Shown: positions 13,496-59,871 of the stretch, one piece after another
How the letters are laid out: each line of letters begins with the position of its first letter
Position numbering within the stretch: the first letter of the stretch is position 1
NCBI GenBank assembly: GCA_963921275.4
Contig: OZ001293.3
Coordinates: 2,624,001 to 2,688,000, forward strand
Direction: 5' to 3'
Length of the DNA: 64,000 nt
Origin: an uncultured Hormoscilla sp.
Lineage (GTDB): Bacteria > Cyanobacteriota > Cyanobacteriia > Cyanobacteriales > Desertifilaceae
The notes under the pieces: generated by a model
What the model was told of the DNA's origin: nothing
Seen by the model: the letters and a program-made list of their open reading frames with translations, nothing else
Databases searched by the model: none
Made by a program: the position numbers and the translations under genes

Positions 13496-15317
13496 ATGGA
13501 TGTTTCTCTGAGCAGCTCTCAGGTAAAGCAAAAAGCGCTAGAATTGGGCTTCCATAAGGTGGGCATAGCGGCTATAGATGCTAAAACTGTCAGTAAAGCA
13601 GTTGAACGTTTACAGGCATGGCTAGGAAATGGCTACCAGGCGGATATGGAATGGATGGCAAACCCTAAGCGTCAAGATATCCGTCAGGTAATGCCTTCAG
13701 TTCAGTCTATTATTACGGTAGCTCTCAATTACTATACTGCTCATCAGCGTCCTGAAGGGAGTCAGTACGGAAAAATCTCTCGCTATGGGTGGGGACGGGA
13801 CTATCATCGGGTGATGGACAAAAAGCTGAAACTGTTAGCAAACTGGCTGCGATCGCACTCTTGTGGAGTGGAAGTGCGTTACTATGCTGATACGGGACCT
13901 GTTCAGGATAAGGTATGGACCCAGGCGGCGGGGATTGGCTGGATTGCCAAGAATGGTAATGTAATTACGCGGGAGTATGGGTCTTGGGTATTTTTGGGAG
14001 AAGTGTTGACGAATATAGTTTTAACCCCAGATGGGCCCCATACTGAACATTGTGGCACTTGTACTCGCTGTATAGACGCTTGTCCTACGGGGGCGATCGC
14101 CCAGCCCTTTGTAGTAGACGCTAATCGCTGTATTGCCTATCATACGATCGAGAATCGTGCCGACAGTTTACCCCTAGCGATCGGGTCTCATCTAGAGGGT
14201 TGGGTTGCGGGTTGCGACATTTGCCAAGATGTCTGTCCCTGGAATCAGCGGTTTGCCAAAGAAACCGACATTACTGAGTTTGTGCGATTCGTTCTAGCCT
14301 AACGTGGTCAAACACGGAACGCTAGCCCGGTTTCATTAGCCGGGAACTCTGACCGCATGGGGGTTAAATTCCCCTCCCCCCAGGTACGGGGGTGACACCG
14401 GTCCTCGGTGCTACGAAGCGACATCATCGTGGTGCTAAGCGAGGACTCAAATGTAGGATAACTGGCAGCCTAAGCCGGTGACGCCGCTAGGAAAGATATC
14501 CAAGGTTAGAGCAGGCAAACATGTGCAAGCCTCGTTATAAGGAACCAGCGAAATAAGGCTATATGCGCTGGCCTAAAAAGGAAATGGTAGCTAGTATTAG
14601 TTTTAGACTCTGGCTAATATAGTACTCAAATAGCTCCCGGGGTATAGTGTGGACCTAAAGGTATTGCGAAATGTTGTTAGGGAACGAAGTAACCTCTCGT
14701 GTGCTGTCCATCAGGACAAGTTAGATGTTAAGCGCAAGCCACGGGGGGAGGGATGGCCCAAGAAGCGAATGCCCGGGGTAATTCCTGGGATAACATCTAC
14801 AGTAATGTAGATGATGCTGGGTAGCCAGCGCTGACGTGGGTCGGTGATACTAGGAAGCTGCTGGAATGAGTAATCCTAAAAAGCCACGGAACTAATCCGA
14901 AACGCAAGTGGAGGATAAGGTATGGATAACTGGTAAAACTGACTTGAAAATGGTGATACTAACGGTTATCAGAACAACCACTCGCTAAACCAGGAAAGGG
15001 AAGAAAAGACAGGCGGCAAGGGCTAACGGAAGTAATTCCTATTAAGTCTACCTATGAAAAGGGCCTAGTACCCAGTAGCCGGATGCGGTGAAAATCGCAA
15101 GTCCGGTTCCTCAAGGGAGGGTCGGGAAGCGATTCCCGGCTCGACCCCATCCAACCCCTATCCCGAGAATCTGACTCCCAAGTTGAGCGAATTGGCAGAA
15201 ATTTCTGATGCGGAGTAGAACCGGCGATTTCCCGCTTCGGCCCTGCGGCGGATTAAACCAGAGATGCTGCGGCGAAATGCTCGTGCTAACCTGGAAGCAG
15301 ATGCGCTCGTTGAATAA
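13496..15317 (+). pseudogene. queG: Epoxyqueuosine reductase, exons 13496-14281 and 15153-15317, with in-frame TAG at 15216
   Basis: [34 protein letters not shown]; spliced C-terminus ITEF|NPYPEN..DAE*NRRFPASALRRIKPEMLRRNA. Confidence 0.9.
14282..15152 (+). mobile_element. ORF-less group II intron, family A copy 1 (871 nt), sense in queG
   Basis: 5' GTGCGATTCG; domain V AGCCGGATGCGGTGAAAATCGCAAGTCCGGTT; domain VI hairpin with bulged A; no ORF; three more copies in window. Confidence 0.95.
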
Positions 15318-21042: not shown

Positions 21043-21154
21043 TTAGCTTATCGTGTTGATGGGAATGGAGATCGCAAACTCTGTTCCCTGGCCAGGTACT
21101 GAATTACAGCTTAACTTTCCGCAGTGTTTTTCTACCACGATCGAGTAGCTAATA
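21043..21154 (-). pseudogene. C-terminal remnant of a histidine kinase HATPase domain
   Basis: Translates ISYSIVVEKHCGKLSCNSVPGQGTEFAISIPINTIS* immediately after the intron 3' end. Confidence 0.8.
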
Positions 21155-22873
21155 ATTAAACTAAGCCAGTCCGTCACCGGACCGACTCGTTTTCAAAACC
21201 GGACGTGAGATTTTCACCTCATCCGGCTCCTCAGTAACGCCATCCTTGTCATGGACACGGCAACTACCGTCACTGGCAGTCTTGATATCGTGGCAATGTT
21301 TGTGTAGCAGTTGTAGGTTGTCCCACTGGTCCTTACCACCTAATGAGAGTGGCTTGATGTGGTCTACTTCCCATCTGTCGTTATCCTTAAACGTTAGTCC
21401 GTATTGTTGACATTTCCCCTTTTGCCTTTTCAGTAGCATAGCTACTCGGTTACTTAATTCCGGGTTTTTGCCTAGTCTTGTGCTCCAATATGTGAGGTTC
21501 CCGTCGTATGGGCTAGCTCTTCCTTTCACTTTAATGTGTCTCACTATCCCTACACTTGCGTGTCGATTTAGTGTTACCTCCCTTTTATCTTCACACCGGA
21601 ATCGCCATTGTCCATCTTGGTCCACTGACCAGTATTTTTGGGCTATCCAATGCTTTGACTTGTTGGCGTGTCTTCTCTTTGCCCAATCCTACAGGATTTT
21701 CCATAGGTAATCGTCCATGTCCGAGTAAACTTCTTTGCTTACTCCTGTCCTGAAGTAGTTTGCCCATCCTCGTATTATCGGGTTGAGTTTGCTAATCAGG
21801 GCGTCTTGTGGAGCTGCTCTGTAACTGTTTACTATCTCTTTTAACCTTTCTTTGTGCTTACCTGTGGATTTATTACTGGGTTTGATGAGGGTCTTGTAAC
21901 CTAGGGGTTTTCCATGTCCGTTCTTGCTGCTTCTATTCTTACTAATCTCATATTGCCTTACGTTGAACCCCAAGAAGTCGAATCCTGGTTCTTCTCCCTC
22001 TAGCGTATGAGCTATTTTTGTCTTTTCCGGCTTCAATTCTAGTCCAACCCCTTTCTGCCACTCTGCTATGACCACTTGCGCCTCTTCTATCTTCTTTCTA
22101 TCCTCATGCATTACCACAAGGTCATCGGCGTATCTGACCACTGTCAGCTTCTCCTTCTCTCTTTGTGTTTTTACAAGTTCCATCACAGCCTCCTCTAGCC
22201 CATGTAGAGCTATGTTTGCCAGTAACGGTGATATGACTCCTCCCGTACCCTCTTTGGTTGCATACCATTCTTTCTTGTCTATCACCCCGGCTTTTAACCA
22301 TGCCCGTATTTGTTTACGGATTGGTGAAGTCGTATTCAGTTTTTCTATCAGCGCTTTATGGTCAATCTTATCAAAGCATTTTGCAATGTCAGCATCTAAT
22401 ACCCATTTGGGTTTGTACCTAATGCTGTTGAATATTGCTTCGATTGCATCGTGGCATCCTCTTCCAGGTCTGAATCCGTAGGAGTTACCTTCCATATACG
22501 CTTCCCATTCAGGATAACTGCGCAATTTTCAGTAACCCCTGTGTCGCTCGGTCGTGCATTGTAGGTATTCCTAATGGACGTTTTTCGTCTCTCCCTGGCT
22601 TGGGTATCCACACTCGTCGCGCGGGCCGAGCTTGGCTGGAGATTTCTATTTGTCCTACCAGTTCTAGTCGTTGCTTTGGGGTTAGTGATTTCACACCATC
22701 CACACCTGCCGTTTTCTTTCCCTGGTTGTCTTGTGTTACCTGCCGTACCGCTAGACTTTTGGCAGCCCGGGATTTTACCAGCATCATCTGTAAGTTGTCA
22801 GGGCTAATGAAACCCTGCTATCTGGGACAGCTTTTGAATTGTGTCAAGTCGGTTTAATCTAAACGAATCGCAC
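21155..22873 (-). mobile_element. Chimeric, internally deleted group II intron with dead RT/maturase/HNH ORF
   Basis: 5' GTGCGATTCG at 22873, ~80 nt later runs into LAVRQVTQDNQGKKTAGVDG; YADD; HNH; domain V/VI ending TTAGTTTAAT at 21155; frameshift near 22515, PQ lost from GTPQGG, TAG at 21689. Confidence 0.9.
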
Positions 22874-24006
22874 CCCAGATATCCTCTGGATGAATTGGAT
22901 GGGGTCGAGCCGGGAATCGCTTCCCGACCCTCCCTTGAGGAACCGGACTTGCGATTTTCACCGCATCCGGCTACTGGGTACTAGGCCCTTTTCATAGGTA
23001 GACTTAATAGGAATTACTTCCGTTAGCCCTTGCCGCCTGTCTTTTCTTCCCTTTCCTGGTTTAGCGAGTGGTTGTTCTGATAACCGTTAGTATCACCATT
23101 TTCAAGTCAGTTTTACCAGCTATCCATACCTTATCCTCCACTTGCGTTTCGGATTAGTTCCGTGGCTTTTTAGGATTACTCATTCCAGCAGCTTCCTAGT
23201 ATCACCGACCCACGTCAGCGCTGGCTACCCAGCATCATCTACATTACTGTAGATGTTATCCCAGGAATTACCCCGGGCATTCGCTTCTTGGGCCATCCCT
23301 CCCCCCGTGGCTTGCGCTTAACATCTAACTTGTCCTGATGGACAGCACACGAGAGGTTACTTCGTTCCCTAACAACATTTCGCGATACCTTTAGGTCCAC
23401 ACTATACCCCGGGAGCTATTTGAGTACTATATTAGCCAGAGTCTAAAACTAATACTAGCTACCATTTCCTTTTTAGGCCAGCGCATATAGCCTTATTTCG
23501 CTGGTTCCTTATAACGAGGCTTGCACATGTTTGCCTGCTCTAACCTTGGATATCTTTCCTAGCGGCGTCACCGGCTTAGGCTGCCAGTTATCCTACATTT
23601 GAGTCCTCGCTTAGCACCACGATGATGTCGCTTCGTAGCACCGAGGACCGGTGTCACCTCCGTACCTGGGGGGAGGGGAATTTAACCCCCATGCGGTCAG
23701 AGTTCCCGGCTAATGAAACCGGGCTAGCGTTCCGTGTTTGACCACGTTAGGCTAGAACGAATCGCACATCCTCAATAGAAGATTAGCATCGGCTTGAATC
23801 GCCTCTGCGGACACCTCCAGTAATTCACTGCAACGATTACTCAGGAACGGCCAAGCCAAACGGCCATCGTCGCGCCGCAGAATTTGGCAGATCGCCATAG
23901 CCGATCCTCTAGCAAGGATTCGGTCCAGTCTGGCCTCACTTTCGACCTTCACCGCAGGCGTGGCGCAGCCATGCTTGTTTGGTGTCGAATTGCTTAAATC
24001 TCGCAT
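22874..24006 (-). pseudogene. PAS-domain 5' part of a sensor kinase, exons 24006-23768 and 22896-22874
   Basis: Removing the intron gives ..FLSNRCSELLEVSAEAIQADANLLLRIIHPEDIW (PAS IHPED motif). Confidence 0.75.
22897..23767 (-). mobile_element. ORF-less group II intron, family A copy 2 (871 nt)
   Basis: Reverse complement of 14282-15152 with about three substitutions. Confidence 0.95.
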
Positions 24007-29795: not shown

Positions 29796-31799
29796 CTAAT
29801 AATAGTAATACCAGTTTCCAGGTTTAATGCCATTAAGCCACCAGCGGAGCAAAGACCCAACAACTTCCACCTCAATCTCTTGTCCTTTGCGCCGTAAAAT
29901 CGCGTAGGGACTATAGGCTTCGCTGATATCCATACATTGGTGAGAGCCTTCCTTGCAAAAGGCGACAAAGGCAGGAATAGCTGCTCCCTGAGAATCCCAA
30001 TAAATTTCGCTCTTCTCCCGCCACTCCCAGAAAGCCTTCATAACTGTCTGGTGATTCAGTCCTAGCAAATTGATTGGGTCTTTAGCTGACCATTTAGCTT
30101 TGAATGCTGCCTCTAAATCTGGAGTTTCTAGCACTGAGAATACATAGTGCTCGTGGACCTCATCGCGAGCCTCATCGTTCCAGTACTGGGCTATGAGTAA
30201 TGTTGCTGAGTTAAGTTGAGGGTATTTTTCAAAACAAGCTTTAACCCAATTTGACATAGGAATCAATAATTCGCGCTCTTAGTTGTGCTGCTTCCTATTC
30301 ACTGTATAGGTGGATGGGGTCGAGCCGGGAATCGCTTCCCGACCCTCCCTTGAGGAACCGGACTTGCGATTTTCACCGCATCCGGCTACTGGGTACTAGG
30401 CCCTTTTCATAGGTAGACTTAATAGGAATTACTTCCGTTAGCCCTTGCCGCCTGTCTTTTCTTCCCTTTCCTGGTTTAGCGAGTGGTTGTTCTGATAACC
30501 GTTAGTATCACCATTTTCAAGTCAGTTTTACCAGTTATCCATACCTTATCCTCCACTTGCGTTTCGGATTAGTTCCGTGGCTTTTTAGGATTACTCATTC
30601 CAGCAGCTTCCTAGTATCACCGACCCACGTCAGCGCTGGCTACCCAGCATCATCTACATTACTGTAGATGTTATCCCAGGAATTACCCCGGGCATTCGCT
30701 TCTTGGGCCATCCCTCCCCCCGTGGCTTGCGCTTAACATCTAACTTGTCCTGATGGACAGCACACGAGAGGTTACTTCGTTCCCTAACAACATTTCGCGA
30801 TACCTTTAGGTCCACACTATACCCCGGGAGCTATTTGAGTACTATATTAGCCAGAGTCTAAAACTAATACTAGCTACCATTTCCTTTTTAGGCCAGCGCA
30901 TATAGCCTTATTTCGCTGGTTCCTTATAACGAGGCTTGCACATGTTTGCCTGCTCTAACCTTGGATATCTTTCCTAGCGGCGTCACCGGCTTAGGCTGCC
31001 AGTTATCCTACATTTGAGTCCTCGCTTAGCACCACGATGATGTCGCTTCGTAGCACCGAGGACCGGTGTCACCCCCGTACCTGGGGGGAGGGGAATTTAA
31101 CCCCCATGCGGTTCAGAGTTCCCGGCTAATGAAACCGGGCTAGCGTTCCGTGTTTGACCACGTTAGGCTAGAACGAATCGCACAGTCTCCAGAAGGATCT
31201 CCCTCTAGACAATCTTTAGCTATTTGTTTAATTTCATATTCCTTAAAGCTCCTCAGAGATTGTGGCGTGATTCCATCCTGATGAGGACGCCACATTTTAC
31301 CAATAATTTCAACTTCAATGTCATCACCCAGGCGACGGAGAATGGCATAGGGAACAAAGTCTTCCTTAACATTATTTTTTGAGGGAGACTCATTTTTGCA
31401 AAATGCAGCGAAAGCAGGAATTGCAATTCCTGCTTCATCCCAAATTAATTTGTAGTTGTGCGGTAATTTGACTTTTTGATTTTCCGATCGCAAACTGCGC
31501 ATTACTTTGTCAATTTCCTCGCGATCGTGACATGTAAATACTGGCAGATTAACTAAGTCTGTGCTTAAGTGATATTTTGAAGTTAGACCAGCGGACCAAT
31601 CGGGGTTTTCCAGTAATGAGAATATGTATTCGTCATAGACTGCGTCATGTTCCCACTCATTACAATACTCAACGAGCAACACAATAGACTGAAGCTGGCT
31701 GTACTTTTTAAAGCAAGCGGCTGCAAATGGCTTGACCCAATCTTCTATTAGCTTTGCCCGTAATTGGGCTGTTTCTTCTGCTGTGTACATGTATTTCAT
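29796..31799 (-). pseudogene. Two-domain tandem-repeat protein of unknown function, exons 31799-31184 and 30311-29796
   Basis: Both halves share AQLRA..ACF.KY.QL.S..FS.LE.PD..AIPAF.AFCK..PYAILRR; second half has TAG near 30295 and a frameshift near 30250. Confidence 0.75.
30312..31183 (-). mobile_element. ORF-less group II intron, family A copy 3 (872 nt)
   Basis: Near-identical to the other copies, one extra base near 31113. Confidence 0.95.
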
Positions 31800-44619: not shown

Positions 44620-45168
44620 TGTACATATACATTATGTTTGTGGTAATAGTGGGAAATAAAATGAATGCTCATTACCTTTACGAACAACTCGCTCGAGATA
44701 TGATCGTCCGTTTCTGGGCCCGATCGTTCCCACCAAAACCAGCAAGATGTTGCATCTCACTTTAGTAAAAGCCCGCGCAGGCGGGCTTTGGAACTGTAGC
44801 CGGACCCTTCAGGGTTCGGGCGGCGGCGTCTATATAATCGTACCCAACTTTTCCAGCGGTGTCAAGGTTTCTATAAGATTAATCTCGATACCGGAGTAAT
44901 CTCACACCAGCACTCCCCCCGTTCGGAGTCCAACAGACAGATAATGCTGTAACACCGGTGACAGGACATCAAAGGCGATCGCCTTATTGTGCCTGCGCTA
45001 CCCTTGGTTTTGGGGACGTTTGACATGATACCAATCTCGTTAATCACCCTGTGGACTAAACACTTTCTCTACAAGTTTTTTAGTCGGTACCGACTTTAGC
45101 CTCGTTCCCTGGGGAACGCGGGGGTTTGCAACCCACGGCGGGCCATGAGACTAATTGAGAATGGTGCA

Positions 45169-46003
<835 letters not shown>

Positions 46004-46019
46004 AAATCTCAGTTCAACT

Positions 46020-46535
46020 CTACTTACCCAATTTCCAATCTTCACCACCCGATAGTTTGCTGACTTCCTCCATAATCACACTACGTATTGTTTTCGCAGA
46101 ATGTTCATAAGTTAAATTTAGCAGTTGAGTCGCACCCCGAAATACTGCCGTCTTATCTACCAGATTTTCGAGTTTAAATGGCGTCAACTGCCCATCCAAA
46201 ACTTCCCCACTCCCTATTGCTATTGCATCAGCAAAAGCCATTTCCAAGTAGTCACCCCATTCATCCTGCTTAATATAGTAAGAAGTTTTATTCTCTTTCA
46301 GATTTAGACTTTGGATCTTCAGGAGAGAATCTCTGATCGAAGCATACCATGAATTATTCATCTTTTTTTCAACTACATTCTTAATTAAATGAACCAGCAT
46401 TTTGACCAGAAAACTCTCGATATTTTGCAAAATAGCTTTCTTACTCATCCCTTCCAGTTCGTCTACTAACATTAATGCCTCATCATATCGACCTGACAGG
46501 ATGCATGTTCTGATGTCTGTGAGTTCTTGAGTCAT
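46020..46535 (-). CDS. DUF29 family protein
   Basis: ELEGMSKK..IESFLVKMLVHLIK..SWYASI. Confidence 0.8.
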   Translation of the reverse strand: MTQELTDIRTCILSGRYDEALMLVDELEGMSKKAILQNIESFLVKMLVHLIKNVVEKKMNNSWYASIRDSLLKIQSLNLKENKTSYYIKQDEWGDYLEMAFADAIAIGSGEVLDGQLTPFKLENLVDKTAVFRGATQLLNLTYEHSAKTIRSVIMEEVSKLSGGEDWKLGK

Positions 46536-47128
46536 GGCAATCTATCCTTGGCAACCTCTGTCCTTATTCTACTATAGCATTTTCAGATAGATGCGCGCAT
46601 TCACTTTTCCCATCTTGCAACAATGGTCCCGCGCTAATTGAGAATTATTCTAGTTTGTCCGGAATGTAACATTCCGTTCAATTATTACTAATCTTTTTAC
46701 AAATATGAGATACACCCATAGGATCTAAAATCAGATTGATACAGTTCGCGCTCTGTCGAGCGACGAGCCGCCCGCTCGTTCCCACCAAAACTAAATCCAG
46801 CAGGGTGTTGAGGGTTTGGTCGGGTCTCTATAATATAATAACCATTTTTTGCAGCGGTGTCAAGGTTTCTATGAGGGTAGAGTCACAAGTAGTGATTTTA
46901 GTGCCTGAAACCCGGCCATGGCCAAATCATTACATCTGGACCACTACCTATATAAGATTAATCTCGATACCCGCACCCATCTCGCCTCCCCGTTCCTGTC
47001 CAACAGAGCCCTGCCCTGGCAGCGGGCTTCTACCGAGTTCCCTAGCTCCCCCGCCTGGTAACGCAGGGGGTTTTAACCCCCTGCGGGCTATGAGACTAAT
47101 TGACAATGGTGCAAGATATCAGATGCTA

Positions 47129-47863
47129 TTATCCCACAAAAATAATCTTACCCACATCGGAAATTCCATTTTCCAAACGGTAATATTTGTTAGCCACCTG
47201 CTGGTAAAACTTAAAGGATATACCAGCGATATTAAAAGCATTACCGTTAGTATCCGTAGCCGAAACGCCAGGATTGCTATAAAAGGTAAATTCAGTAGCA
47301 TCCAAAGGCACCTCAGCCGAAGCCCCAATTGCAAGATCTGTAGTAATGTAAATATCATCTGCTGTAGTAGTAATACCCGCGACAACAGTTAGAATTCGAG
47401 CATGAGTAGCTCCCATAGGGGCTTTAAGATCTTCCCCTCGAAAATTATTTTCCAGAAGATTCTTCAGACCGACCCCAGATTCATCGATCGCGATTTTTCC
47501 AGAAAAAATTGAGTCAAAAGGGCTCGCAGGATTGAAATCAAAACCAGCCAGCAGAAAGACAGCAGCATCCCTGGACAAAAATCGTTGTCCCCTTGCCGAA
47601 GTAGTATCCATTGGAAAAGCCTTTTGCCTAATCAACTTTGTGAGGCGATTATGCTGACCGCGAGGAGCTACCCCTAAAGGAGCAAGGGCTTGGCGTATTA
47701 TCTTTGAAGTCCTAGCGGCCCGACCAAATTCACTATTATTTTCACGAGTGCGCTTAGCAGTTATAGGCCGCGGACCAGGAAGCATCCTAGCTTGACCGTC
47801 ACGGGAAAAAGATATACCGCCAATGTTACCAACAAGTTTAATTGGATTTTTTTGTCGTGCCAT
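47129..47863 (-). CDS. Hypothetical protein with basic N-terminus (MARQK..RTRENNSEFG type)
   Basis: Intact 244-aa ORF; motif resembles uncharacterised proteins I associate with Bacteroidota (unverified). Confidence 0.7.
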   Translation of the reverse strand: MARQKNPIKLVGNIGGISFSRDGQARMLPGPRPITAKRTRENNSEFGRAARTSKIIRQALAPLGVAPRGQHNRLTKLIRQKAFPMDTTSARGQRFLSRDAAVFLLAGFDFNPASPFDSIFSGKIAIDESGVGLKNLLENNFRGEDLKAPMGATHARILTVVAGITTTADDIYITTDLAIGASAEVPLDATEFTFYSNPGVSATDTNGNAFNIAGISFKFYQQVANKYYRLENGISDVGKIIFVG

Positions 47864-47915
47864 TTTACTTCACTTCAATTAAGTAAACAGATAGAATGAA
47901 AACCTCGAAACTCTT

Positions 47916-48280
47916 ACAGAGATACCTTTCTCTCGTTCCCAGGTAAAACCTGGAAACGGACCTCGCTCGGCTCCCCCCTCCTATCAGGAGTGCCTGTTCA
48001 AGTCTACTACCATACAGAGCCTGAAAGCATCGCCCCCTCGACAGAGATACCTTCTCTCGTTCCCAGGTAAAACCTGGAAACGGACCTCGCTCGGCTCCCC
48101 CCTCCTATCAGGAGTGCCTGTTCAAGTCTACTACCATACAGAGCCTGAAAGCATCGCCCCCTCGACAGAGATACCTTTCTCTCGTTCCCAGGTAAAACCT
48201 GGAAACGGACCTCGCTCGGCTCCCCCCTCCTATCAGGAGTGCCCGTTCAAGTCTACTACCATACAGAGCCTGAAAGCATC
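47916..48280. repeat. Three tandem 124-125 bp units
   Basis: Units start at 47916, 48041, 48165; each holds CGTTCCCAGG..CCTGGAAACG hairpin. Confidence 0.95.
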
Positions 48281-49525: not shown

Positions 49526-49846
49526 CAGGGCGCCAGTGACAGCACATCAAAGGCGATCGCCAACTTGAGCCAGCGCTGCCCTTAGTTTTGGGGACGTTTG
49601 ACAGGATCCGAATTCCGGTAATCACCGAGCCGTACCCGATCGCCCCCTGAACCTAATCGCACTACCCTAGAGACATCTATCGCCCCCCGATAGCCCTGCC
49701 CTGGCAGCGGGCTCCTACCGAGTTCCCTAGCTCCCCCGCAGGGCTATGAAACTAATTGACAATGGTGCAAGATCTCAGATGCTATTATCCCACAAAAATA
49801 ATCTTACCCACATCGTAAGTTCCCCAAAACAGCTATTGAGCCAACT

Positions 49847-51353
49847 TCAATTAACCACAGTGAAATCATCGACATTAATCAGGTTCTCATCAATCCGCTG
49901 CAGGGTGGCCAAGGTTTCCCCGGCGAAAGAGTTAATCAAGGTATCTCTGCCCTGAGAGACGATCGCCAAATCGTCGAAACTCAAACCTCCTGCAGCCAGC
50001 CAGATCGAGTCCGTGCCATATTCAAAGTCTATGATGGTATCCCGGCCCCTGCCCGACTCCAGGACAAAAAGATCGGCCTGAGATCCCCCGTAGAGGCGAT
50101 CGCTTCCATCTCCGCCGATGAGAGTGTCGAAGCCACGGTCTTCGTAGAGGCGATCGCTTCCATCTCCGCCGATGAGATAGTCGTTCCCATCTTTTCCGTA
50201 GAGGCGATCGCTTCCCTCTCCGCCAAAGAGGGTGTCGTCCCCCTTTTTCCCAAAGAGCCAGTCTTTCCCTCCTAGACCTAAGAGCTGTTCCCCGTTGGGT
50301 GTCCCTTGGAGGCGATCGTTCCGATTATCCTGACCGACTATTGGTGCGGCGACCTCCAGAACATCCTTGACGTCAATAGTAAAGACCTCCTCGTAACGGT
50401 TCCCAGTAGAGTCGGTAGTTTGGACGCGGATGCTGTAGCTCGATTGGGTCTCAAAGTCCGAGGAACTGTTAATTAGCAGGTTTTCTACTATGATGAAGGC
50501 GGCGTTATCATCGGCACCAACGCCGGAGACTAACTGGTAGGTAAAGGTATCTCCCTCATCGGGGTCGGTAGTGGAAAAAGTCCCTACGACTGCACCCTCA
50601 GGGGAGTTTTCGTCAATGCTGCTGCCAGAGAGGTTGAGGTCGGTAGGAGATTCGGCAACATCGTTCACGTTAATCGTGAAGACCTCCTCGTAACGGTTCC
50701 TAGTAGAGTCAGTAGTTTGGACGCGAATGCTGTAACTCGATTGGGTCCACCTCTACCGCCGTTGCCACCTCTACCGCCGTTGCCGCCGTGGCCGCCGCGG
50801 CCGCCGTCGTCGCCGCGGCCACCTCTACCGCCGTTGCCGCCGCCGTAGCCACCTCTACCGCCGTTGCCGCCGAAGCCGCCGTTGCCGCCGAAGCCGCCGC
50901 TGTTGCCGCGGTAGCCATTATTAGCAGAAATAGGAGTGACGAAATTAGCATTACCACCCGTATCGTGCCCGCTGCTATTGCCACCAATGGCGTGATTATT
51001 CACGAAAGTGCTATCGGTCACCGTGACCGTCCCGTTATAGACAAACAGGCCACCGCCCATGCCTGCCCCGCCGCCGCTGCCATTGCCTCCCCGGGCCCGG
51101 CCGTTGCGAAAGGTCAGGTTATCGAAATTGACCACACTGCTTCTGACAAAGAACAGCCGGTATTGGTTGTTGCCACTAATGGTGTTGTTGTTCCCATATA
51201 TCGTGAGCTGGTCGTCTTCTTCAATAAGGGTAGCAACTTCGTCAGGGTAATATTTCCCGTGATGTTAATGGTATCTGCCTGACGGTTATTCTTGGAATTG
51301 GTAATCGCTTGAGAGAGTTCTGCTTCTGTGTTGACGTAGTTAAATTCAGCCAT
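49847..51353 (-). pseudogene. Glycine-rich, cadherin-repeat, RTX Ca-binding surface protein, frameshifted and internally deleted
   Basis: GGGAGMGGGLFV, GGNGG runs, DFETQSSYSIRVQTTD cadherin, GGDGSDRL repeats across three frames. Confidence 0.8.
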
Positions 51354-59739: not shown

Positions 59740-59871
59740 AGGGTAGGGCTACAAGAACAAAGCCCGCCTGCGCGGGCTAGCTTCTCTGTAGGGTGGGCGG
59801 TGCCCACCGCCTCTCTTTTCCTTCACAGAGTCAGAAAACGAGAGTACAAATATCAATTGAGGAAAGCGGTT

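Follow-up and report, generated by a model that had tools for sequence, protein, structure and literature searches.

Group II introns typically end in a 3' AY dinucleotide, which is regarded as equivalent to the AG of spliceosomal introns, and annotation pipelines rely on it together with an A at position -7 or -8 to place intron ends. An exception has been reported for RmInt1 of Sinorhizobium meliloti, in which a CC 3' end with a penultimate pyrimidine was described and mutated; it was also noted in other class D introns, where similar runs of C are found (Chillon et al. 2014, PMC4238363). Substitutions of the penultimate base of RmInt1 impair the second splicing step, G and U being the worst and A wild-type-like, and wild-type RmInt1, with its CC end, performs the second step inefficiently and forms circles (PMC4238363). 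The altered 3' sites listed in the part of the review by Zimmerly and Semper that is drawn on here are those of class B introns with a domain VII only (PMC4424553). For the distance between the branch-site A and the 3' site, Stabell et al. give 7-8 nucleotides (nt) as normal, and mutants of B.c.I4 are described there as using 3' sites a few bases downstream in vitro (PMC1865049). Here, we analyzed a stretch of 64,000 nt (the window) of contig OZ001293.3 (assembly GCA_963921275.4, uncultured Hormoscilla sp.), most likely from a Hormoscilla-like sponge symbiont. The window, with a G+C content of 48.6%, contains at least six group II introns, and among these are four copies of a family A and one intron of a family B without an open reading frame (ORF). 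Sequence comparisons indicate, with a probability of about 0.8, that both families are ORF-less IIB2 (CL2-type) introns in which 8 nt follow the branch A up to the 3' boundary and the last two bases are CC or CU instead of AY. Such an end is a rare but documented kind of exception, and what is added here, of modest interest, is another lineage that has CY at its end.

The four family A copies are 871-872 nt long and 99.3-99.8% identical by BLAST: A1 (871 nt, GTGCG...CGACCCCATCC; 14282-15152, + strand) lies inside queG, A2 (872 nt; 31183-30312, - strand) in a repeat-domain protein gene, A3 (23767-22897, - strand) in a PAS histidine-kinase gene, and A4 (54943-54073, - strand) antisense in a + strand gene. 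When the copies are aligned together with their flanks, identity extends from GTGCG through ...GGCTCGACCCCATCC and ceases after CATCC; each GTGCG is preceded by T, and CC is followed by A, A, A and G. In A1, 8 nt lead from the bulged A at 15144 to the intron end at 15152. Excision of GTGCG..CATCC restores the host reading frame at all four sites, as checked against intron-free homologues for A1, A2 and A3 and against the spanning ORF and a paralogue in the window for A4. The queG 5' exon (13496-14281, +; 91% identical to the Hormoscilla QueG P0002) ends in ...ACT GAG TTT (T E F) and the 3' exon (15153-15317, +) starts with AAC CCC (N P), so that joining 14281 to 15153 gives TDITEF|NPYPENLTPKLSELAEISDAE. 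This product is colinear without gaps with all 11 QueG homologues aligned, including four Hormoscilla proteins that read TD(V/I)TEFNPYPENVAPKLSELA(E/K)ISD(A/E)EW, and placing the intron end at CAT or CATC yields frameshifted, unrelated and stop-ridden text. Removal of A3 (...AGG AT|A ATT CAT, R I I H) gives LLLR-I-IHPEDIW, with the Ile codon split by the intron, and this sequence equals that of an intron-free PAS kinase protein (P0121, 96% identical); the latter reads LLLRIIHPEDIWEFNQSL, with LLLRIIHPEDIWEFNQ at the junction. Removal of A2 (...GGA GAC T|AC CTA, G D Y L) gives GD, a split Tyr codon and then LYSE*EAAQLRARIIDSYVKLG, matching the intron-free homologue P0125 at this site (...EGDIYGDYLYSEEEAAQLRARIIDSYVKLG..., GDYLYSEEEAAQLR..., including GDYLYSEEE). 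The A4 host, on the opposite strand, becomes ...NGDYY|RLNKDKWLSNLTFDHIHDRI... with 45 more open codons (GDYY|RLNKDKWL at the junction) and resembles the upstream paralogue GDYTRDRDKFLGNSTLEEIFAQI (GDYTRDRDKFL). By frame alone, chance agreement at four of four sites would be ~(1/3)^4, and the residue-level matches leave chance negligible.

These comparisons show, at the level of DNA, that the inserted unit of family A is exactly GUGCG...CAUCC, flanked by a 5' exon U and a 3' exon A or G. The alignment to intron-free orthologues that the original prediction had named as a check was colinear at the queG, PAS kinase and repeat-protein junctions, and together with the ORF at A4 it bears out the predicted end at ...CATCC rather than at the internal AT. 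Strictly, the boundary is an integration junction. Since integration by reverse splicing mirrors forward splicing, we take the same junction as the probable 3' splice site.

The family B intron (835 nt, ORF-less, GTGCG...CGACCCCGACT; 45169-46003, +) is 75-79% identical to family A by BLAST and lies in a non-coding repeat element that is also present uninterrupted. An empty target GGTGCA^AGATCTCAG occurs exactly at 49764-49778 (+) and with 1 mismatch at 47108-47122, and two such matches were found in 0 of 100 shuffles. The family B locus and the two empty loci have homologous flanks as copies of one repeat. Excision of GTGCG...CGACT leaves GGTGCA|AAATCTCAG to be compared with GGTGCA|AGATCTCAG, and an end at GAC would add one surplus base relative to the empty sites; farther downstream the similarity, judged by eye, is weaker. 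The predicted end at ...CGACT, and not at the internal AC, thus fits two empty paralogous sites. Neither family has AY at its 3' boundary, as family A ends in CC and family B in CU. The repeat itself is a non-coding element of ~300 nt present three times (44829-45168 plus 46004-46040, 46827-47170 and 49533-49823), one copy of which hosts family B exactly at GGTGCA^A; a search of Rfam with 49600-49900 gave no match at E<=1. Three tandem copies of a unit of ~125 nt, 83-93% identical, occupy 47897-48280.

Domain V of A1 (15077-15108, +; AGC triad, GAAA loop) was recognized by RF00029, the Rfam domain V/VI model, with 44.4 bits against a gathering score of 40. In total, the model matched five introns of the window at 44.4-56.9 bits: three of family A (15074-15150, +; 22975-22899, -; 30390-30314, -), family B (45925-46032, +) and a canonical intron called family C (21231-21155, -). 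The fourth family A copy, A4, was detected by BLAST and not reported by RF00029, possibly because of a G->T change in its domain V. This change is located in the 3' strand or bulge (..CGCAATTCCGG..). Folding of A1 with RNAfold placed the bulged branch-site A 15144 (internal loop A / GA) in a domain VI helix (15115-15147, +) with 3 base pairs (bp) below it, and sequence, copy alignment and QueG comparison define the unpaired 5-nt 3' tail C-A-U-C-C (15148-15152, +) that ends with the last intron base.

We also scanned genomes with the domain V sequence, which yielded 103 loci among the matches listed; the genome of the window was not among them. At least 12 of these loci have the same domain VI (GGGAGR...YCGACCCC). 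Their tails are CTAAC at five or more loci, all in Hormoscilla sp. SP12CHS1, and CTAAT at three or more in Okeania, Crocosphaera and Oscillatoria, while CATCC was found at least twice and CAACC and CGACC at least once each, all four of these in metagenome-assembled genomes (MAGs) of Hormoscilla. Eight of the 12 related loci thus carry CTAAC or CTAAT in the alignment column where families A and B have CC or CU, and in the five CTAAC copies identity is lost directly after CTAAC. A penultimate C is present in families A and B and in the Hormoscilla loci L005, L033, L061 and L085. An alignment of domain VI from 11 clade members contains no gaps; base pairing holds in 96.5% of its cells, compensatory changes occur at 7 of 13 pairs, and the GA bulge does not vary. 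All 11 members have the 5-nt tail, whether AY- or CY-ended, and a regular-expression count gave at least 16 copies with this spacing. Fold, copy alignment and covariation agree on the bulged A 8 nt before the junction, as predicted. The idea of a shifted splice site was not supported in its original form: because the AAC and AAU ends of the sister introns fall in the same column, the 8-nt spacing is a trait of the clade, and the true departure is the change of the penultimate A to C. The AT within CATCC is a coincidental AY. The distance from the A to the junction is 8 nt in the clade of families A and B, 7 nt in family C and 6 nt in the Rfam consensus, and 8 nt is within the published range or one base beyond it, depending on the counting convention.

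As for classification, families A, B and C start with GTGCGATTCG, in agreement with the 5' consensus GUGCGAUUC that Pfreundt and Hess use as a criterion for IIB2 (PMC4649490), and a GTGCG (GUGYG-type) 5' boundary is common to every family A copy and to families B and C. The 5' ends of the sister loci lie outside the fetched DNA or, in L067, read GTGCGAAACG, and no 5' end of the IIB2 type was observed outside families A, B and C of the window. With the Rfam models for domains I to IV, the only match was sub-threshold (group-II-D1D4-2, 22 bits against 36). Below the bulged A there are three G-C pairs followed by an A/C or U/C mismatch, and domains V and VI are joined by a linker of ~6 nt, where the B2-like type as defined in the part of PMC1865049 used here has 4 bp and a 3-nt linker; the AY-ended sisters are alike in this. 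Supplementary Table S3 of PMC8643678 gives 21 IIB2 introns by coordinates and EBS2 (exon-binding site 2), without 3' ends. When ORF-spanning tests of the 3' end were applied to L033, L005, L067 and L062, all four proved to be situated in non-coding DNA, and none of the registers was favoured. Two introns of a neighbouring IIB2 family, L089 and L091 (Nostoc MAGs), with fetched flanks of 300 nt, read ..ATCGACTCAACCAAAA, and relatives read ..ATCGACTCTAAC; if a 7-nt spacing were kept, these two might also have CC ends.

Recognition of the 5' exon appears to be of the usual kind. The predicted EBS1 of A1, AGACUC (14605-14610, +), lies in the 13-nt loop UUUU-AGACUC-UGG, and the aligned place in family B holds UGCACU, which pairs 6/6 with GGTGCA. 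The putative EBS2, AUAAGG (14537-14542, +), is complementary to the intron-binding site IBS2 CCUUAT at -13..-8; this segment differs between the families, and the next hairpin loop is conserved. IBS1 pairs with EBS1 at 6, 5, 4 and 5 of 6 positions in the family A copies and at 6 of 6 in family B, and IBS2 with EBS2 at 4, 5, 5 and 6 of 6 and at 2 of 6, respectively. As queG is the best-matched site, the other three family A sites look like ectopic insertions. For the 3' exon, a U stands just 5' of EBS1 in A, B, L033 and L005 (14604, a delta-like base, in A1) and can pair with the +1 base, A or G, at all five occupied sites of the window. The +2 and +3 bases pair at two of five occupied sites each, which is the chance level against U-rich bases, and only the two empty family B sites pair at all three positions. 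Of the loop-contiguous recognition of the 3' exon proposed originally, only pairing at +1 is supported. When four families were compared by hand, the bulge 3' of the EBS1 stem was also seen to hold a conserved YAU, whose A and U might by analogy serve as delta' and EBS3, as is usual in IIB introns. Because the standard IIB arrangement (delta U, delta' A, EBS3 U) predicts the same +1 purine, it is indistinguishable here from loop-contiguous pairing. Minimum free energy folding of domain I for the coordination loop was unreliable.

Taken together, the 3' site may be determined by the same four features as in ordinary IIB introns, one of them being a constant distance from domain VI. In such a scheme, EBS1-IBS1 and EBS2-IBS2 pairing would hold the 5' exon, the partner of the +1 purine would be a U (the one beside EBS1, or EBS3 in the bulge on the 3' side of the EBS1 stem), and the terminal pyrimidine would be kept for the gamma-gamma' pair. 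The one departure is the penultimate C, which, as in RmInt1, takes the place of the A that makes contact with G1 in a normal second step. Since the terminal pyrimidine is conserved, gamma-gamma' remains possible and only the contact between G1 and the penultimate base must differ. It is conceivable, though we consider it unlikely, that this IIB2 lineage independently swapped its penultimate A for C and rewired the G1 contact, possibly as a G-C pair, perhaps with IIA-like pairing of the 3' exon contiguous with EBS1; a continuous match of 9 bp between family B and the empty sites suggested this last element. If true, the lineage would be a natural convergent second example beside RmInt1, and AY- and CY-ended sisters within one genus would serve as a test of the last two bases.

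Other placements of the boundary have to be weighed against an end at CC or CU. With canonical ends at ...CCCCAU in family A and ...CCCCGAC in family B, the following CC or U would be conserved bases of the target site. In this reading AY follows the bulged A by 6 or 7 nt, as textbooks have it, and the RF00029 alignment indeed stops at ...CCCCAU. It is nevertheless barely credible, as an end at ...CAT leaves a frameshift in every host gene, the retained CC shifting the frame of queG, the PAS gene and the repeat-protein gene and closing the fourth ORF. It also leaves an extra base relative to the two empty family B sites and a +1 C or U that would not pair with the conserved U, and the sister AAC or AAU lies one or two bases farther on, at the CC column. 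A shift of the whole unit by one base, to UGUGCG...CAUC with 5' exons lacking the shared T and 3' exons starting with C, would be compatible with the repeat boundaries by themselves, given the T before GTGCG in four of four copies, and the QueG protein is the same in both registers (Phe as TTT or TTC). The codons for Ile (AT|A) and Tyr (T|AC) that are split by the introns exclude such a boundary, which would give Thr instead of the Ile of P0121, His instead of the Tyr of P0125 and, against the paralogue in the window, Gly instead of Arg. Moreover, such a shift would do away with the GUGYG start and with A-U pairing at IBS1 -1, and family B would differ from the empty sites at 2 positions instead of 1, so that we give this register a very low probability. 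A history of exon capture, in which an ancestor ending in ...CCCCAU was mis-spliced 2 nt downstream and took CC from its old 3' exon, would explain the internal AU at canonical distance in family A and has a parallel in the 3' sites used a few bases downstream by B.c.I4 mutants in vitro (PMC1865049). We regard it as distinctly improbable, because the 5-nt tail is common to 11 of 11 aligned clade members, AY or CY, and the ends GACU in family B, AACC in L005 and GACC in L061 are one or two substitutions from the sister UAAC; with a tail of fixed length and few substitutions, substitution is simpler than capture.

A different doubt concerns not the junction but its use. The integration junction may be right while the CY end makes exon ligation poor or absent, so that the introns would be gene-disrupting retroelements that perhaps form circles or stall as lariat-3' exon intermediates. 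This is rather unlikely in our judgment but deserves to be taken seriously. It agrees with RmInt1, where a CC end accompanies an inefficient second step and circles (PMC4238363), with the additional inactivating lesions in four of four hosts and one antisense insertion, and with a window that lacks an intact intron-encoded protein (IEP), the family C ORF being truncated and split. On the other side, at least five families (A, B and the L005, L033 and L061 types, ~70-80% identical) keep CY together with an intact, covarying domain VI, which argues that the end is functional at least for reverse splicing. In RmInt1, the mutant with a penultimate A is wild-type-like, so that C is not necessarily harmful (PMC4238363). 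In decaying symbiont genomes, pseudogenes are expected anyway. We favour a CC or CU boundary at the clade's normal position, and several points weigh against it. Forward splicing at the 3' boundary is deduced from DNA junctions, and all four host genes bear further lesions, which give no sign that splicing is selected for or still occurs. The A4 junction is the weakest, since the paralogue is off by one residue in length near it, and the A4 host gene has no outside homologues at E<=0.01 and no Pfam match. The family B junction has non-coding paralogues only, with 9 clearly alignable 3' bases including 1 mismatch. EBS3 is assigned by analogy, and a gamma partner was sought and not located: the J2/3 segment AAGUUA is shared by family A, which ends in C, and family B, which ends in U, and this makes a gamma-gamma' covariation test uninformative, as G could pair with either.

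The lesions in the host genes are of several kinds. In queG, an in-frame TAG at 15216-15218 replaces a Trp present in 11 of 11 aligned homologues (DAEW to DAE*), with in-frame homology continuing to the normal C-terminus, so that the gene looks like a recent pseudogene, or else a sequencing error is present. In the 3' exon of the A2 host (30147-30312, -), TAG replaces Glu (YLYSE*EAAQ, where P0125 has YLYSEEEAAQ) and the frame is shifted near 30244; repeated modules of ~190 residues, with no Pfam match, make up the protein. Being antisense to its host gene, A4 could not be spliced from that mRNA. The PAS histidine-kinase gene (21049-24006, -) carries two introns 23 nt apart, A3 and then family C (22873-21155, -; 1719 nt; ending canonically in ...GCUUAGUUUAAU, with 7 nt following the A). 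The flank 3' of family C holds the last ~40 kinase codons (homologue residues ~605-643 of 644), and ~520 codons are absent, as would be expected if two copies of family C, once inserted at different sites of the gene, had recombined. Family C was considered as an internal canonical control and rejected: its 5' junction W|E fits P0121, and its 3' flank lacks residues ~88-607, so that the two flanks are not one site. Its protein is decayed (21161-22525, -), with an N-terminally truncated reverse transcriptase (RT) and with RT/maturase (278 residues) and HNH (154 residues) in separate ORFs. On the + strand of A1, no ORF of at least 80 residues was found within 14303-15152; an element of 871-872 nt is too short to code for an RT, and families A and B, having no RT of their own, must depend on an IEP supplied in trans. 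A search of a plasmid collection with the intron gave no match. A match to the Rfam model CRISPR-DR28 was dismissed as a G+C-rich hairpin that occurs only twice (59756-59779 and 44769-44789), 15 kb apart and on opposite strands, and is no CRISPR array.

With regard to annotation, the AY rule would misplace the boundary here by two bases and frameshift every host gene. A CY lineage unrelated to RmInt1, with AY-ended sisters in the same genus, also offers a natural comparison for the role of the penultimate base in the second step and in circle formation. Whether the end is undescribed, which the original prediction had left open, can be answered in part: a CC end is known from RmInt1 and class D (PMC4238363), whereas for cyanobacterial IIB2 introns the published literature, searched without the curated intron database, gave no description of a CY end. 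The same search gave no paper on group II introns of Hormoscilla.

Compared with known systems, these introns are in other respects ordinary members of the ORF-less IIB2 kind, and what is found here refines the picture modestly. Like RmInt1 and its class D (IIB3) relatives, they are bacterial, mobile, IIB-like ribozymes, and family A shares the CC end, whereas family B ends in CU; since a CC end is documented in RmInt1, the missing AY does not exclude membership of group II. They differ from RmInt1 in the IIB2 5' end GUGCGAUUC, in having no ORF and in a 3' exon that begins with a purine rather than a run of C. Their tail of 5 nt puts the A 8 nt from the junction. The IIB2-type 5' end and the cyanobacterial sisters argue against class D membership of families A and B. 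The ORF-less families of Thermosynechococcus elongatus are likewise proliferated small derivatives in a cyanobacterial genome, with partial EBS/IBS site matches and presumably an IEP acting in trans, but are described as IIB1 and EcI5-like, unlike the IIB2-type introns here (Mohr et al. 2010, PMC2882425). Class B introns that carry a domain VII, such as B.c.I4, likewise have a 3' site that departs from the domain VI rule, with in-frame exon joining as support; their shift, as described, is 50-70 nt with an extra stem-loop, whereas only 5 unpaired nt follow domain VI here (PMC1865049, PMC4424553), ~1 base beyond the 6-7 nt of the Rfam consensus and family C. Cyanobacterial IIB2 (CL2) introns such as Trichodesmium Tr.e.I7, and the sister copies L008, L082, L083, L087, L101, L011, L044 and L067 in MAGs of Hormoscilla, Okeania, Crocosphaera and Oscillatoria, have the same domain V, a domain VI with the invariant GA bulge and the 5-nt tail; the sister copies have the canonical AAC or AAU end.

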